Of a stretch of DNA of 64,000 nucleotides, positions 54,571-61,577 are shown piece after piece. Positions within the stretch are counted from its first letter, which is position 1. Every line of letters starts with the position of its first letter. The translations under genes and the position numbers were made by a program. Under the pieces are notes generated by a model that was not told the origin of the DNA, did no database searches, and was given only the letters and a program-made list of their open reading frames with translations. Source of the DNA: Minisyncoccota bacterium (GTDB taxonomy: Bacteria; Patescibacteriota; Minisyncoccia; Phycocordibacterales; UBA9973). Location: assembly GCA_041658325.1 (NCBI GenBank), contig JBBAAI010000001.1, positions 154,869-218,868 of the forward strand, given 5' to 3'.

Positions 54571-54582
54571 AAATTAACTAAA

Positions 54583-54620
54583 AGAATCCCCGATAAGGGG
54601 ATTTTTAGTTGCTTTTTATT
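54583..54620 (+). terminator. intrinsic terminator after rplB (unusual mid-operon)
   Basis: aatcccc gata aggggatt hairpin + tttagttgctttttatt. Confidence 0.6.
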
Positions 54621-54663
54621 TTGAAAGTGTTATAATACTCTCTATCTATCTGAGGAGGTGTCA

Positions 54664-54837
54664 ATGTCGAAGAAGGTTCCGGCAAAGAGGAGAAGGTACA
54701 AGAGAAACCTGGAAAAGAAACAGCGCGAGGAGAAACTTGCGCGACAACAGGCTAAGGGGAGAGGGGTGCCGGCCGGTACTTTCCAAGATATTCAACCCGC
54801 TCTGAACAAGAGATTTAATGGGCGGGCACAAAGTTAG
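54664..54837 (+). CDS. small highly basic protein (57 aa), GC-rich, strong Shine-Dalgarno; inserted between rplB and rpsS
   Basis: gaggaggtg 5 nt upstream of ATG; MSKKVPAKRRRYKRNLEKKQREEKLARQQAKGRG...; below the 60-aa ORF-track cutoff so read directly from sequence. Confidence 0.5.
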   Translation: MSKKVPAKRRRYKRNLEKKQREEKLARQQAKGRGVPAGTFQDIQPALNKRFNGRAQS

Positions 54838-54852
54838 CTCTGTTTGGATCAC

Positions 54853-54899
54853 GGGCGTGTTGCGGGTTTGATTCCCCGGCACGCCCTTTGTTTTTATTT
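54853..54899 (+). terminator. intrinsic terminator after small basic ORF
   Basis: gggcgtg...cacgccc stem enclosing a nested cggg/cccg hairpin, then tttgtttttattt. Confidence 0.6.
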
Positions 54900-54971
54900 A
54901 AAAATTGACATTTTATTTGAATTTGCTATTATGAAACCAAGCTCGTTAGGAGCTTTTTGTTTGCTTAAATT

Positions 54972-58002: not shown

Positions 58003-58551
58003 ATGAAACACTTAAACGTAAAAGAAAAAGAAATAGAGGCATTTGGAAAAATGAAAGACGCTTTTCATTTTAAAAATGTGATGGCTTCTCCAAAAATGAA
58101 GAAAGTCGTAATCAATGTCGGCACAGGAACGATGGTCAAGAAAGACAAAAATAAAAATGAAGCCGTAGCAGACAGGTTAGCAAAAATTACCGGGCAAAAA
58201 ACTGCCTTGCGAGGAGCGAAGCAATCCATTTCTTCTTTTAAAATTCGCCAAGGAGATCCTGTCGGAGTTGTCGTCACTCTTCGTGGTAAAAGAATGTTCG
58301 CCTTTTTGGAAAAATTAATTAATGTGGCGCTTCCTCGTACGAAGGACTTCCGTGGTATTAATCGTAAAGCAGTAGATAATATCGGGAACTTAACTATCGG
58401 CATCAAAGAACATACCATTTTCCCAGAAACAGCTGATGAAGATATCCGCGACGTTTTCGGTTTGTCTATCACCCTTGTTTCAACTGCAAAAAACAAAAAA
58501 GAAGGCACCGCCTTCTTCGAACTCCTAGGTGTTCCTTTTAAAAAGGAATAA
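58003..58551 (+). CDS. rplE: 50S ribosomal protein L5
   Basis: 182 aa; order; conserved L5 core. Confidence 0.95.
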   Translation: MKHLNVKEKEIEAFGKMKDAFHFKNVMASPKMKKVVINVGTGTMVKKDKNKNEAVADRLAKITGQKTALRGAKQSISSFKIRQGDPVGVVVTLRGKRMFAFLEKLINVALPRTKDFRGINRKAVDNIGNLTIGIKEHTIFPETADEDIRDVFGLSITLVSTAKNKKEGTAFFELLGVPFKKE

Positions 58552-58561
58552 AACTTTCTAT

Positions 58562-58590
58562 TGACTTTTTCTTAAAATATGCTATCCTAT
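58562..58590 (+). promoter_or_regulatory. sigma70-like promoter for DGR target gene
   Basis: ttgact-N17-tatcct; followed by a 46-nt leader hairpin gtcatagcca...tggctatgac (58626-58671). Confidence 0.45.
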
Positions 58591-58750
58591 AAAGATAGTT
58601 CTTTAAAATTACTTGCGAAGGTGGTCATAGCCAAAAGGTGCTTAATATTAGGCATTTCCTGGCTATGACTACCGTTGTGGTTGTCCTCTAGCAAAAACCT
58701 AACCGATGCGTCCTATGGGATGTGTCAAAGAAAAAGGAAGGATGTGCCAA

Positions 58751-59377
58751 ATGGCAAATGCGTCCGAAATCTCTGTCGGTTTAGTTCACGAGCTCGCCAT
58801 CACGGGCACCAAGGTCGGATTCGAGCCCAAAGACTTCGCTACTCTCGCCCACAGCGAGGAAAGGATGTCTTCCATCCTCGGCGTGCTTCATGGTACGCAC
58901 GAGATCCGTCCGATCGATTATGTGATCGATTTCAACTCTCCGGCTCGGTTGCCGTTCAACGGTGCCGTGCTCGAGGTGCACCGCGGAACGGGCATCGTCA
59001 AGCTCGAGAAGAAGGCCGACGGCCTGTATCTCGACGGAAAGAAGCTCACGCTCTTTCTCTCCAAGAAGCAGAAAAAGGGAGGCGTCATCGAGGGCAACAA
59101 GCTTCGCATCGAGCTCGAAAAGAGGGGTAAAAATGTAGGAGCGAAACTCCTTGACCACTTCGTCGAGCATCCAGAGATGTGGCCCGAGGAGTGGAAGAAG
59201 GACGACCAGGGTAATACGCTCTACGTGTTTTTCTGGGATGACATCTTCCGCAACCCGGCGTGTGGCGATCTGTATGTCCGGTGTGGGTGCTGGCGCGGAG
59301 GCGAGGTCATCTCGGGCTACGACTGGCTCGGCGATGACTGGCGCGGCCGCAGCCCGGCTGTCTCTTCCGTAAGTTAG
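58751..59377 (+). CDS. DGR target (variable) protein; C-terminal VR; GC-rich
   Basis: About 208 aa. The 3' 124 bp is homologous to the TR with mismatches only at TR adenines. Start chosen at MANASEISVG (aggaagg SD 9 nt upstream); ORF track alternative start is 58706. Confidence 0.75.
   Translation: MANASEISVGLVHELAITGTKVGFEPKDFATLAHSEERMSSILGVLHGTHEIRPIDYVIDFNSPARLPFNGAVLEVHRGTGIVKLEKKADGLYLDGKKLTLFLSKKQKKGGVIEGNKLRIELEKRGKNVGAKLLDHFVEHPEMWPEEWKKDDQGNTLYVFFWDDIFRNPACGDLYVRCGCWRGGEVISGYDWLGDDWRGRSPAVSSVS
59246..59369 (+). repeat. DGR variable repeat (VR)
   Basis: ttccgcaacccggcg...gctgtctcttccg; 104/124 identical to TR; all 20 mismatches lie opposite TR adenines. Confidence 0.85.
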
Positions 59378-59426
59378 TAATCAGAACTTTGCCTCTTGGA
59401 TCTTCTTGATCCTTGAGACTTAGTCC

Positions 59427-59473
59427 TTGGGCCCTGTGTGTTTGCTTCGGCATTCGCGCAGGGCCTTTTGTTT
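59427..59473 (+). terminator. hairpin + T-run after target gene
   Basis: gggccctg tgtgtttgcttcggcattcgcg cagggcc ttttgtttt. Confidence 0.55.
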
Positions 59474-59706
59474 TGGTAAAATAAATATGGTAGTAGGTGA
59501 ATACGCGAGCGACCACGGTTTCTCGCTACCGAATCCAGTATCCGTATGTCGAGAATATTTGCGACTAAGGTTTCAAATAGGGTGATATACGAAGACACTT
59601 CAAAAATGAAGTTACTTGGTGTAAGGTGCTATGGCATTACGATGCCGAATACGATACAACCTTGAGAGTATTCAAAAGGTGGTGGCACAGAAGGCAGCTT
59701 ACACAT

Positions 59707-59830
59707 TTCCGCAACCCGGCGAATGGCAATCTGTATGTCCGGTATGGGTACTGGAACGAAGGCAAGGTCATCTCGAACTACAACTGGCTCGACAATGACT
59801 GGAACGGCAACAACCCGGCTATCTCTTCCG
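59707..59830 (+). repeat. DGR template repeat (TR)
   Basis: Intergenic copy of VR, rich in AAC/AAT codons (nine Asn codons in VR frame). The open frame in the ORF track (59626..59859) is a consequence of VR homology. Confidence 0.85.
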
Positions 59831-59839
59831 CAACTTACT

Positions 59840-60205
59840 TCATTTCTCTCTCGTCTTAACGGCGGGAGAGTTTTGTTTTAGGAGTTGTCCGTTCCAACCC
59901 CCGAGCATTTTTCCAATTTCTTCTATTTTTTGAGAAAGAACAATATATTTTTTATCGTCAATTGATTTTGCTTCCCATAAAACCATCAAAAGTATTTTTA
60001 GAGTATCTGATTTTCGTATCGCTAACCGAACCCAAGGATGTTTTTCTTCTCGAGATAAAAAAGTAGCGATAGAAACAGCTTCAATAATTTCAATAAACAT
60101 CGTATCAATCTTTAATCCCAAAGAGTGCTTGTGTATTTTGGGCAGAATTTGATAAAAGGTAATCCAGAGAAGATAACAGCTCTTAACTTTTGCCAATAAT
60201 GGCAA
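59840..60205 (-). CDS. avd: Avd-like four-helix-bundle accessory protein (TIGR02436 / 23S rRNA-IVS protein family-like)
   Basis: About 120 aa; EAVSIATFLSRE and EEIGKMLGGW match the AVSIPSNIAEG and eeIgkML signatures of the family; lies between TR and RT on the opposite strand; apparent TTG start. Confidence 0.5.
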   Translation of the reverse strand: MPLLAKVKSCYLLWITFYQILPKIHKHSLGLKIDTMFIEIIEAVSIATFLSREEKHPWVRLAIRKSDTLKILLMVLWEAKSIDDKKYIVLSQKIEEIGKMLGGWNGQLLKQNSPAVKTREK

Positions 60206-60210
60206 AAGTT

Positions 60211-60220
60211 GGGGGGGGGG
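60211..60220. repeat. G10 homopolymeric tract in the divergent avd/RT intergenic region
   Basis: gtt gggggggggg tac, 17 nt upstream of the RT ATG. Confidence 0.9.
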
Positions 60221-60236
60221 TACTATTATAAATACT

Positions 60237-61253
60237 ATGTCCCGAATCCAATTTAGTCATACTTACGACTATATCATTTCTCTAGAAAATCTGCTTTTGG
60301 CGTGGAAAGAATTTGTTGTCGGCAAGAAAAATCGCAAAGACGTAGAAGAATTTCAAAGAAATTTGATGACTAATATAATTTCGTTACATACGGATTTAGT
60401 AAATAAAGCATACAAGCATTCCCAATATGAAGCATTTAATATTTCTGACCCAAAACCGCGCAATATTCACAAAGCGAAAGTACGGGACAGATTATTACAT
60501 CATGCGATTTATCGAGTTTTGTATCCTTTTTTTGACAGGACATTTATTACTGACTCCTATTCTTGCAGAAAAAACAAAGGAACACATAAAGCCATAAACA
60601 GATTCAGAAAATTTGCCTATCAAGCGTCAAAAAATCATACCAGAACAGTTTGGGTTTTGAAAGGGGATATTAAAAAATTCTTTGCTAATATTGATCACGA
60701 AATATTAAAAGGAATTTTGAGAAAACATATTCAAGATAAAAATGTTCTTTGGCTCTTGGGGCAGGTGATAGATAGCTTTTCTTCCCAAAAACATATTTAC
60801 GCTATCGCTGATATATGCAGTAAGGGTTTACCACTCGGCAATCTAACTTCCCAACTTTTAGTAAATATTTATATGAATGAATTTGATCAATTTGTGAAAC
60901 ATAAAATCAAAGCGAAACACTATGTTCGTTATGCGGATGATTTTGTAATTTTGTCGCAAAATAGAAAATGGTTAGAAAATACAATTGTTAGAATAAAAGA
61001 TTTTCTTGAAAATGAACTTATGCTTTCTTTACATCCTGCAAAATTATCCATAAGTACCGTTGCCTCTGGCGTGGATTTTTTGGGTTGGGTTTTATTTCCA
61101 GACCATAGGGTAGTCAGGACTATCACGAAACGGAGGATGTTTCATGGTGTAAAAAAGAAGCACGGGAGTTTTGAAACAGTGCAATCATATCTAGGCTTGT
61201 TAAGCCATGGAAATGCAAGAAAGTTAGAAAGTGAGATAAAAAATTATATTTGA
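60237..61253 (+). CDS. DGR-type reverse transcriptase
   Basis: RT motifs 1-2 (ISDPKPRNIHKAKVRDRLLHHAIY), motif 4 LGNLTSQLLVNIYM with DGR-specific SQ, motif 5 YVRYADDFVIL (YADD); 338 aa. Confidence 0.85.
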   Translation: MSRIQFSHTYDYIISLENLLLAWKEFVVGKKNRKDVEEFQRNLMTNIISLHTDLVNKAYKHSQYEAFNISDPKPRNIHKAKVRDRLLHHAIYRVLYPFFDRTFITDSYSCRKNKGTHKAINRFRKFAYQASKNHTRTVWVLKGDIKKFFANIDHEILKGILRKHIQDKNVLWLLGQVIDSFSSQKHIYAIADICSKGLPLGNLTSQLLVNIYMNEFDQFVKHKIKAKHYVRYADDFVILSQNRKWLENTIVRIKDFLENELMLSLHPAKLSISTVASGVDFLGWVLFPDHRVVRTITKRRMFHGVKKKHGSFETVQSYLGLLSHGNARKLESEIKNYI

Positions 61254-61391
61254 CTCTTTTGGGATTATTTGCTAATATCAAAACAAGGGAATAGGGCTTT
61301 GATTAATCCACTTTTCTCCTTTAATTCTTTAGTTTTAAAGGGTTAAAGAAAAAAAGTGAGATATTAACGGAGCAATCCTGATAAATTATTT

Positions 61392-61577
61392 ATGGCAAAA
61401 ACATCAGTAAAAGCTAGAGCAGCAAAAAAACCAAAATTTTCTACTCGACAGAAAAATCGATGTTTTCGCTGTGGCCGAGGAAATGGTTTTATGCGTGATT
61501 TCGGTATTTGCCGAATTTGTTTTAGAGAATTAGCAAACGAAGGAATGCTTCCGGGTGTTCGTAAATCAAGTTGGTAA
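61392..61577 (+). CDS. rpsZ: 30S ribosomal protein S14 type Z (zinc-binding)
   Basis: 61 aa; [23 protein letters not shown]. Confidence 0.95.

Follow-up and report, generated by a model that had tools for sequence, protein, structure and literature searches.

What kind of reverse transcriptase (RT) is encoded by the open reading frame (ORF) at positions 60237-61253 of the 64,000-nt stretch of Minisyncoccota bacterium DNA analysed here (contig JBBAAI010000001.1 of assembly GCA_041658325.1, positions 154,869 to 218,868; hereafter the window), and to what system does it belong? The NCBI annotation of the exact protein, in a Candidatus Paceibacterota metagenome-assembled genome (MAG), is 'reverse transcriptase/maturase family protein'; a preliminary description, made from the DNA letters and their translations, had proposed instead the RT of a diversity-generating retroelement (DGR). 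We are highly confident that the ORF encodes the RT of a complete, probably functional DGR of a Patescibacteria (candidate phyla radiation, CPR) lineage, operating by the mechanism proposed below, and this assignment corrects the vague public label of 'RT/maturase family'. The case is built on the family of the RT, the anatomy of its cassette, an adenine-only pattern of differences between a template repeat (TR) and a variable repeat (VR), the conservation and covariation of the RNA that surrounds the TR, and the turnover of the VR in close relatives. The gene itself is as follows:

60237-61253, plus strand: DGR reverse transcriptase gene; 338 amino acids (aa) from an ATG start, with motif A at D144, motif 4 (LGNLTSQ) at aa 200-206 and motif C (YADD) at aa 232-235.

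The characters on which the preliminary description had rested its proposal are all to be found in this protein. The motif 4 segment, PLGNLTSQLLVNIYM, lies at aa 199-213 (nt 60831-60875) and contains LGNLTSQ, and the motif 5 segment, YVRYADDFVIL, occupies aa 229-239 (nt 60921-60953). The protein is indeed only 338 aa long and is devoid of maturase or endonuclease domains, with RVT_1 as its sole Pfam domain (aa 73-285, E 1.5e-25, 90.5 bits against a cut-off of 29.6). In an alignment to the Bordetella DGR RT (bRT), D144 and D234/D235 fall opposite the catalytic residues D138 and D215/D216; K30, F67, R75 and I77 align with bRT K29, F66, R74 and I76, and LGNLTSQ with IGSLTSQ. All of these latter bRT elements are described as template or RNA contacts in a cryo-electron microscopy (cryo-EM) study (bioRxiv 10.1101/2023.10.23.563531). 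When all PDB sequences were searched, the best match was 8ub7_A (328 aa), with E 1.9e-42 over aa 9-323, and the second best, a group II intron RT at E 7e-20, was weaker by 22 orders of magnitude. The structural comparison that had been suggested as a check gave the same ranking. A Foldseek search of the PDB with an AlphaFold2 model of the RT (42 homologues, pLDDT 75) placed 8ub7, 8ubd, 8ubc, 8ubf and 8ube at the top (E 2.4e-17, TM 0.70/0.72), all entitled 'Diversity-generating retroelement (DGR) ribonucleoprotein reverse transcriptase', with group II RTs next at 5e-13. PHROG 1423 (RT) also matches the protein, at E 1.6e-105; NCBIfam contains no DGR RT model.

The assignment becomes decisive because of what lies directly upstream of the RT gene: an Avd homologue, an adenine-only TR/VR pair and a target ORF. 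The order of the cassette is target gene ending in the VR, TR, minus-strand avd and RT gene, and its components, in addition to the RT gene, are:

58751-59377, plus strand: DGR target gene, GC-rich; 208 aa when read from the ATG at 58751 (in the longest ORF the start is at 58706).
59246-59369, plus strand: VR, at the 3' end of the target gene; 20 differences from the TR, all at TR adenines.
59707-59830, plus strand: TR; 124 nt long, with 32 adenines (31 of which fall on codon position 1 or 2 in the frame of the target) and 10 AAY codons.
59840-60205, minus strand: avd accessory gene; 121 aa from a TTG start, divergent from the RT gene.

The two repeats form part of a 131-nt direct repeat (59246-59376 with 59707-59837), the first 124 nt of which hold 20 mismatches. 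All 20 are at TR adenines and at codon positions 1 or 2, and the non-adenine positions are identical without exception (92/92). The VR, which is the sole match of the TR in the window, ends 8 nt before the target stop codon, and the TR ends 407 nt upstream of the RT start. With 20 recodable codons the TR could specify about 10^18 different protein variants. The homology between the repeats stops at ...TCTTCCG, following a G/C-rich run, and beyond it the VR side reads TAAGTTAG and the TR side CAACTTAC; it is at the 3' ends of VR and TR that the IMH/IMH* elements, which in DGRs tell recipient from donor, are to be sought. Judged by sequence matches in three libraries, the minus-strand ORF is an Avd homologue: it matches NCBIfam DivGenRetAVD (E 1.9e-14; 53.8 bits, under the curated cut-off of 80), Pfam bAvd (E 3.9e-9; 37.4 bits, under the curated cut-off of 40) and PHROG 3206, 'Avd protein of DGR' (E 1.8e-12). 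The 3' end of the TR RNA and the final ~13 codons of avd overlap in antisense. The C-terminus of the target protein is a putative C-type-lectin-like domain that contains the VR. Neither a signal peptide nor a Pfam domain was found in the target protein, and a Foldseek search of its model against the PDB gave no match under E 0.7.

The arrangement is far from being peculiar to this genome. More than 8000 database proteins match the RT at E below 1e-20, and a scan of species-representative genomes yielded more than 574 relatives, of which the best 80, plus further contigs, provided the loci that we analysed. These best 80 of the more than 574 are all from CPR/Patescibacteria-type MAGs, with RTs 62-84% identical to that of the window. 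Every one of the 65 related loci with enough upstream DNA has a plus-strand VR/TR pair, detected as a segment with mismatches solely at TR adenines, and the same layout of target, VR, TR, minus-strand avd and RT. The targets are generally about 200-235 aa long (four are about 610-646 aa) with the VR at their end; the distance from the TR end to the RT start has a median of about 411 nt, with the minus-strand avd in between. In a tblastn search, 80 of 85 related loci had a minus-strand avd. The window RT is thus a member of an abundant CPR DGR clade that has already been described.

Evidence that these cassettes are at work comes from a relative whose RT protein (P0104, 66% identical to the window RT) recurs unchanged in different samples, on nine contigs in all. 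The 141-nt TR segment tested is identical in eight of these, and a VR that can be compared is available for three: against the TR the three VRs show 17, 17 and 11 differences, against one another 12-16, and every difference is at a TR adenine; two further contigs start inside the VR. Since the VRs differ at TR adenines while the RT and TR are identical, the family must be active in nature. Only one VR haplotype is available for the species of the window, the other copies (L086 and cluster members) being 100% identical.

Two side observations on this collection of loci deserve mention. The pooled substitution spectrum of the 65 loci, from segments predefined as adenine-only, consists of 649 A>G, 271 A>T and 174 A>C (total 1094), so that A>G makes up 59% of the substitutions at TR adenines, and in the window VR 17 of the 20 substitutions are A>G; this skew could stem either from a misincorporation preference of the RT or from selection. 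Contig breaks are also common in the 1.2 kb or so upstream of the RT, a region that includes the TR, the VR and a poly-G tract discussed below (contigs L011, L017, L020, L026, L027, L031, L032, L038, L048, L051, L052, L059, L062, L080, L083, L100-L104 and L113 all end there). Such ends are probably assembly breakage caused by the repeat together with population heterogeneity, and as a consequence truncated DGR cassettes of this family are frequent in MAGs.

How would such an element operate? In the mechanism that we propose, a TR RNA of ~390 nt (about 59488-59879) would be made from its own extended -10 promoter. The RT and Avd would bind the structured RNA around the TR, which would comprise a 5' domain, a long-range duplex closing the TR and a 3' hairpin. 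The RT would then copy the TR into cDNA, misincorporating specifically opposite the template adenines, and this cDNA would replace the VR at the 3' end of the target gene, thereby recoding up to 20 codons in the putative C-type-lectin-like ligand-binding domain of the 208-aa protein. The formation of an Avd-RT-RNA complex, the cis-priming and the retrohoming steps are assumed here by analogy with the Bordetella phage system. The elements of the RNA are these:

59474-59482, plus strand: extended -10 promoter-like sequence TGGTAAAAT (family consensus TGATATAAT), conserved in an alignment of 67 loci; the putative TR RNA promoter.
59488-59706, plus strand: structured 5' domain of the TR RNA, predicted by RNAalifold on the 67 loci.
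59604-59612, plus strand: strand a of the long-range duplex, AAAUGAAGU, which pairs with 59837-59845.
59837-59845, plus strand: strand a' of the long-range duplex, ACUUCAUUU, 7 nt 3' of the TR end (59830).
59846-59879, plus strand: conserved 10-bp hairpin followed by a U-run, directly after the TR.

Across the 67 loci, ~225 nt upstream and ~50 nt downstream of the TR are conserved; the TR itself is not conserved between the window and the locus of a sister species (L001). In the 5' flank RNAalifold found 35 pairs, 32 of them with compensatory changes. The most extended helix (12 bp, 59619-59630 with 59693-59704) ends 2 nt before the TR and includes, for example, a pair that is CG in 31 loci and UA in 30; the domain also contains a hairpin (59633-59637 with 59642-59646) and a further helix (59659-59663 with 59676-59680). 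In the a/a' duplex 88% of the cells in the alignment are paired, versus 43-54% in slid controls, and 55 cells show a double change, versus 5-22 in the controls; none of 500 shuffles reached the observed values. Covariation, supported against both controls, thus suggests that this duplex closes the TR into a loop. The hairpin just after the TR covaries as well (UA:27/CG:25 at one pair), and by analogy it is a candidate for the Avd-binding stem-loop and/or for the terminator of the TR RNA. The arrangement agrees in outline with that seen in the cryo-EM work on bRT, Avd and RNA, in which Avd binds a stem-loop just 3' of the TR and upstream RNA pairs with downstream RNA; stem-loops just downstream of the TR were reported in 207 of 278 DGRs (bioRxiv 10.1101/2023.10.23.563531). 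A TR:primer duplex between GCAACU at the TR 3' end and AGUUGU downstream was considered and rejected: it pairs in 33-63 of the 67 loci with no covariation. No Rfam match to the TR-flanking RNA (59350-60300) was found, either at the gathering threshold or at E up to 10. The conserved, strongly covarying scaffold offers a second model, besides that of Bordetella, for the way in which DGR RNAs present their template.

The short interval that separates the divergent avd and RT genes contains a feature of a quite different nature:

60211-60220: homopolymer of ten guanines (G10) within the 31-nt spacer that runs from the avd start (60205) to the RT ATG (60237); a candidate contingency tract.

Contingency loci, known from Neisseria, Haemophilus, Bordetella and Campylobacter, are homopolymers or short tandem repeats located in promoters or 5' coding regions. 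The G10 is the only G or C run of 7 or more in the 64-kb window, and at the same spot a run of 7-14 guanines (mode 10) occurs in 67 of 78 related loci, and a G6 in one more. Seven relatives carry another simple repeat instead of the G run, and four carry none. In six of the seven the repeat is near the RT start, as (CTGG)10, (TGATTGC)11, (TGGCGGC)6, (GT)9, (GT)16 or (GA)7, and in the remaining one a (TG)7 is situated at the far edge of the -150 window. Altogether, a G run or simple repeat is present in 74 of the 78 relatives, compared with a background of 0.002 per equivalent window (8 in 832 kb of the same loci). The tract also varies in length between contigs from different samples that have an identical RT protein and identical 100-110-nt flanks: one such group includes G8, G9 (five contigs), G10 and G11 (two contigs), another G8, G10 and G11 (three contigs), and a third G10 and G11, although homopolymer lengths in short-read assemblies are prone to errors of 1 nt or so. 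Between the window and its sister L001 the tract changes from G10 to G13 within nearly identical flanks. A metagenome scan with a pattern for window-type avd-RT spacers, of any tract length, had the sister contig as its sole match. In about a third of the loci, the window included, the tract is followed directly by a -10-like TAnnnT hexamer; in these 4-16 nt or more separate it from the RT ATG. With respect to avd, the tract is situated about 5 nt upstream of the start.

A tract that is both position-specific and length-polymorphic shows the hallmarks of a contingency locus. It is possible, though in our estimation a shade short of an even bet, that it functions as one throughout the family, slippage switching or tuning the expression of the RT and/or Avd and thus rendering the hypermutation itself phase-variable. 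Such an effect could act through promoter spacing, through the 5' untranslated region or through the reading frame of an N-terminally extended Avd. With regard to the last of these, we note that the window and most relatives have an antisense ATG 23 nt inside the RT gene (60258-60260, the RT His8 codon), from which a frame runs through the tract, as poly-C, towards avd; this could be a translational ON/OFF device or a coincidence. That ATG is in frame with avd in about 15-25% of the assembled loci, a proportion that decides neither way. To our knowledge the regulation of DGR activity is largely unknown, and in the literature searched we found no paper tying DGRs to homopolymer or phase-variable control. 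A near-universal tract beside the RT in a family of thousands is thus a concrete hypothesis on DGR regulation; if it is true, a stochastic ON/OFF switch has been placed on top of a targeted mutator.

Might the RT nevertheless be something other than that of a DGR? The public annotation would make it a group II intron-type RT/maturase, and there is some basis for this besides the name: its best NCBIfam match is TIGR04416, group_II_RT_mat (E 5e-46), and group II RTs are the second-best structural class. TIGR04416, however, scores 157 bits where its cut-off is 300, and its match is limited to the RT part of the profile (positions 21-273 of 353). The protein has neither the maturase (X) nor a DNA-binding or endonuclease domain of the Pfam collection, its motif 4 is LGxxxSQ instead of QGxxxSP, and Rfam detects no group II intron RNA in the window. 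With Avd, TR and VR for neighbors, such an origin appears to us highly improbable. It is no easier to believe, and we give it equally little credence, that a defence-type RT (retron, Abi or UG/DRT) has come by chance to lie near a repeat. Weak profile matches to Drt3a, retron St85, Drt2, AbiA and several UG families do exist, but they are far under their cut-offs (67 vs 235 bits for retron St85 and 69 vs 200 bits for Drt3a) and also under the DGR-type matches, so that the profile comparison proposed in the preliminary description did not turn up an Abi, retron or UG clade as the best match. Nor can chance account for a 124-nt repeat that lies in frame at the end of an ORF and whose mismatches (20/20) are at adenines of one of the copies, particularly since the same TR/VR pattern recurs in 65 of 65 relatives. 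The neighbors of this RT, moreover, are Avd, the TR and ribosomal-protein genes.

A more substantial objection is that the element, although a genuine DGR, is presently silent in this genome, either because it has decayed or because the G10 tract holds it in an OFF state. The single VR haplotype of this species is compatible with such silence, as is the spread of tract lengths (7-14 across the family and 8-11 within populations), some of which may be non-permissive. Against silence, all of the ORFs of the cassette are intact, the catalytic residues are present, and the sister species has conserved counterparts of the RT, avd and RNA scaffold at this location. In addition, the identity of VR and TR at 92/92 non-adenine positions implies a recent overwrite. 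On balance we consider a silent element unlikely, and a complete and probably functional DGR remains by far the best description of this cassette.

The base composition of the cassette is uneven, as the preliminary description had remarked in contrasting a host-like, AT-rich RT with the target gene and TR. The GC content is 0.331 for the RT gene and 0.344 for avd, close to the 0.362 of the window, versus 0.574 for the target gene, 0.54 for the TR and 0.694 for the VR; at third codon positions (GC3) it is 0.29 for the RT versus 0.72 for the target, and the RT, avd and neighboring genes have GC3 values of about 0.3-0.4. The window target is GC-rich throughout the part outside the VR (58751-59245), and so are the targets of about 55 related loci. 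For the small targets, the part that is not VR has a mean GC3 of 0.64 compared with 0.41 for the RT of the same loci (n=59, Wilcoxon p = 4e-11), and in a larger set of 65 loci the target exceeds the RT in 61. Exceptions, not GC-rich, are the four long targets (about 610-646 aa) and a minority of the small ones. Adenine mutagenesis can be rejected as the cause of this bias: third-position thymines (T3) are depleted to the same degree as third-position adenines (A3), and the bias extends over the entire gene and stops sharply at its ends. A recent transfer of the cassette as a whole is also unlikely to be the cause, as RT GC3 tracks the GC content of the host (r = 0.77) and target GC3 hardly does so (r = 0.32). 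The GC-rich targets are an unexplained regularity.

The cassette occupies an unusual position, having been inserted (at about 58552-61241) into a cluster of ribosomal-protein genes. The flanking genes and the remaining features of the insertion are:

58003-58551, plus strand: rplE (ribosomal protein L5), left flank of the insertion.
58561-58588, plus strand: promoter-like TTGACT-16-TATCCT at the left edge of the insertion, immediately beyond the rplE stop; the probable promoter of the target gene.
58620-58673, plus strand: two-tier hairpin GGUCAUAGCCA...UGGCUAUGAC in the 5' leader of the target gene.
59430-59475, plus strand: GC-rich imperfect hairpin and T-run, ~55 nt downstream of the target stop.
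61250-61278, plus strand: conserved rpsN promoter-like TTGACT-17-TAATAT, at the right edge of the insertion.
61392-61577, plus strand: rpsN/Z (S14), right flank of the insertion.

The stop codon of the RT (TGA) falls within the -35 box (TTGACT) of the rpsN promoter-like site, and this fixes the right-hand limit of the insertion to a precision of a few bases. A cassette is present at the same rplE-rpsN site in the sister species (L001/L005), which is 88-90% identical to the window in its ribosomal proteins (100% in S14), 84% in its RT and 88% in its Avd; this context is absent from the remaining 79 of the 80 scan loci. Among relatives with an identical S14, the junction is empty in L088, where the rplE stop is followed by the rpsN TTGACT-17-TAATAT, and is probably empty in L093, with an rplE-rpsN gap of about 198 nt. 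Elsewhere it carries other cargo: a 280-nt insert in L091, a minus-strand ORF of 161 aa in L087 and L089, and an ORF of 385 aa in L094. The junction therefore looks like a lineage-specific hotspot at which insertions occur between two transcription units. That the DGR is functionally linked to the ribosome was considered and discarded, the location being confined to the window and one sister species and the relatives having other cargo or nothing there.

At this shared site, the two sister cassettes have diverged in a modular fashion. Window and L001 share 77-84% identity over the RNA scaffold, avd, RT and flanks, but the target and TR regions (window 58678-59471 and 59707-59830; L001 4461-5235 and 5471-5595) cannot be aligned and belong to a different VR family. 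The implication is that the target and TR modules have been exchanged on a conserved chassis, and the conserved RNA scaffold explains how such modules can be swapped. The hairpin in the leader of the target gene (58620-58673) is common to L001 and several unlinked cassettes; its sequence is seen upstream of the target genes in L001, L003, L006, L044, L050 and L074. The hairpin beyond the target stop (59430-59475) is likely to be either the terminator of the target gene or the counterpart of the hairpin that lies 3' of the VR in other DGRs. The ribosomal cluster has a second interruption, between rplB and rpsS (54571-54971), consisting of a terminator-like hairpin, a promoter-like site TGTTATAAT, an ORF, a second terminator-like hairpin and another promoter-like site. 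The ORF (54664-54837) would encode a very basic protein of 57 aa, MSKKVPAKRRRYKRN...; the same gap measures 110 nt in L088 and about 650 nt in L001.

How, finally, does this cassette compare with known systems? Its resemblance to the DGR of the Bordetella phage BPP-1 (PDB 8ub7-8ubf) is extensive. The two RTs have the same fold, a similar length (338 vs 328 aa) and no additional domains, and the catalytic and template-contacting residues are retained, including the [I/L]GxxxSQ motif. In both cases there is an Avd four-helix accessory protein, the differences between TR and VR are confined to adenines, and the VR is at the C-terminus of a C-type-lectin-like domain (that of Mtd in BPP-1, a putative one here). 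Structured RNA is found on both sides of the TR in both, with a hairpin just 3' of it and a duplex between upstream and downstream sequences. The differences are nonetheless considerable. The RTs are only about 27% identical in the structural alignment, and avd is here on the opposite strand, with the TR on one side and the RT gene on the other, so that what lies 5' of the TR in the RNA is not avd coding sequence but a dedicated non-coding domain. The TR RNA seemingly has its own promoter as well as a hairpin and U-run. The element is chromosomal, in a CPR bacterium and not in a phage, and has a small target without any tail-fiber context. The poly-G tract between avd and the RT gene is a further distinction. 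With respect to RNA, the RT-10 motif of Rfam, which represents the region termed Sp in the DGR of BPP-1 (Weinberg et al. 2017, PMC5737381), is similarly a conserved structured RNA adjoining a DGR TR, but the scaffold described here has a large conserved domain 5' of the TR, and no RT-n family of Rfam matches 59350-60300.

The tract likewise has both parallels to and differences from the established contingency loci. Like them, it is fixed in a short divergent promoter/5' region, its repeat units are interchangeable and its length is polymorphic; unlike them, the genes that it would control are those of a mutator (RT and/or Avd) and not that of a surface antigen. A further comparison is with the DGRs of the CPR, described as the 'CPR set' by Wu et al. 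(2018, PMC5758913) and as the abundant, cell-encoded and Patescibacteria-restricted 'DGR clade 2', whose targets lack recognizable transmembrane or other conserved domains (Roux et al. 2021, PMC8144416). From these the window cassette does not differ in kind; it is a member. The tract, the 5' RNA domain and the GC-rich targets are not described in the CPR DGR papers compared, a set to which the 2017 CPR DGR paper does not belong. Complete DGRs were already known to abound in the CPR, and the cassette is a targeted hypermutation system of a well-known kind in an ultra-small Patescibacteria bacterium; what it adds to the known systems is the tract, the RNA scaffold, the GC-rich targets and the hotspot in the ribosomal cluster.

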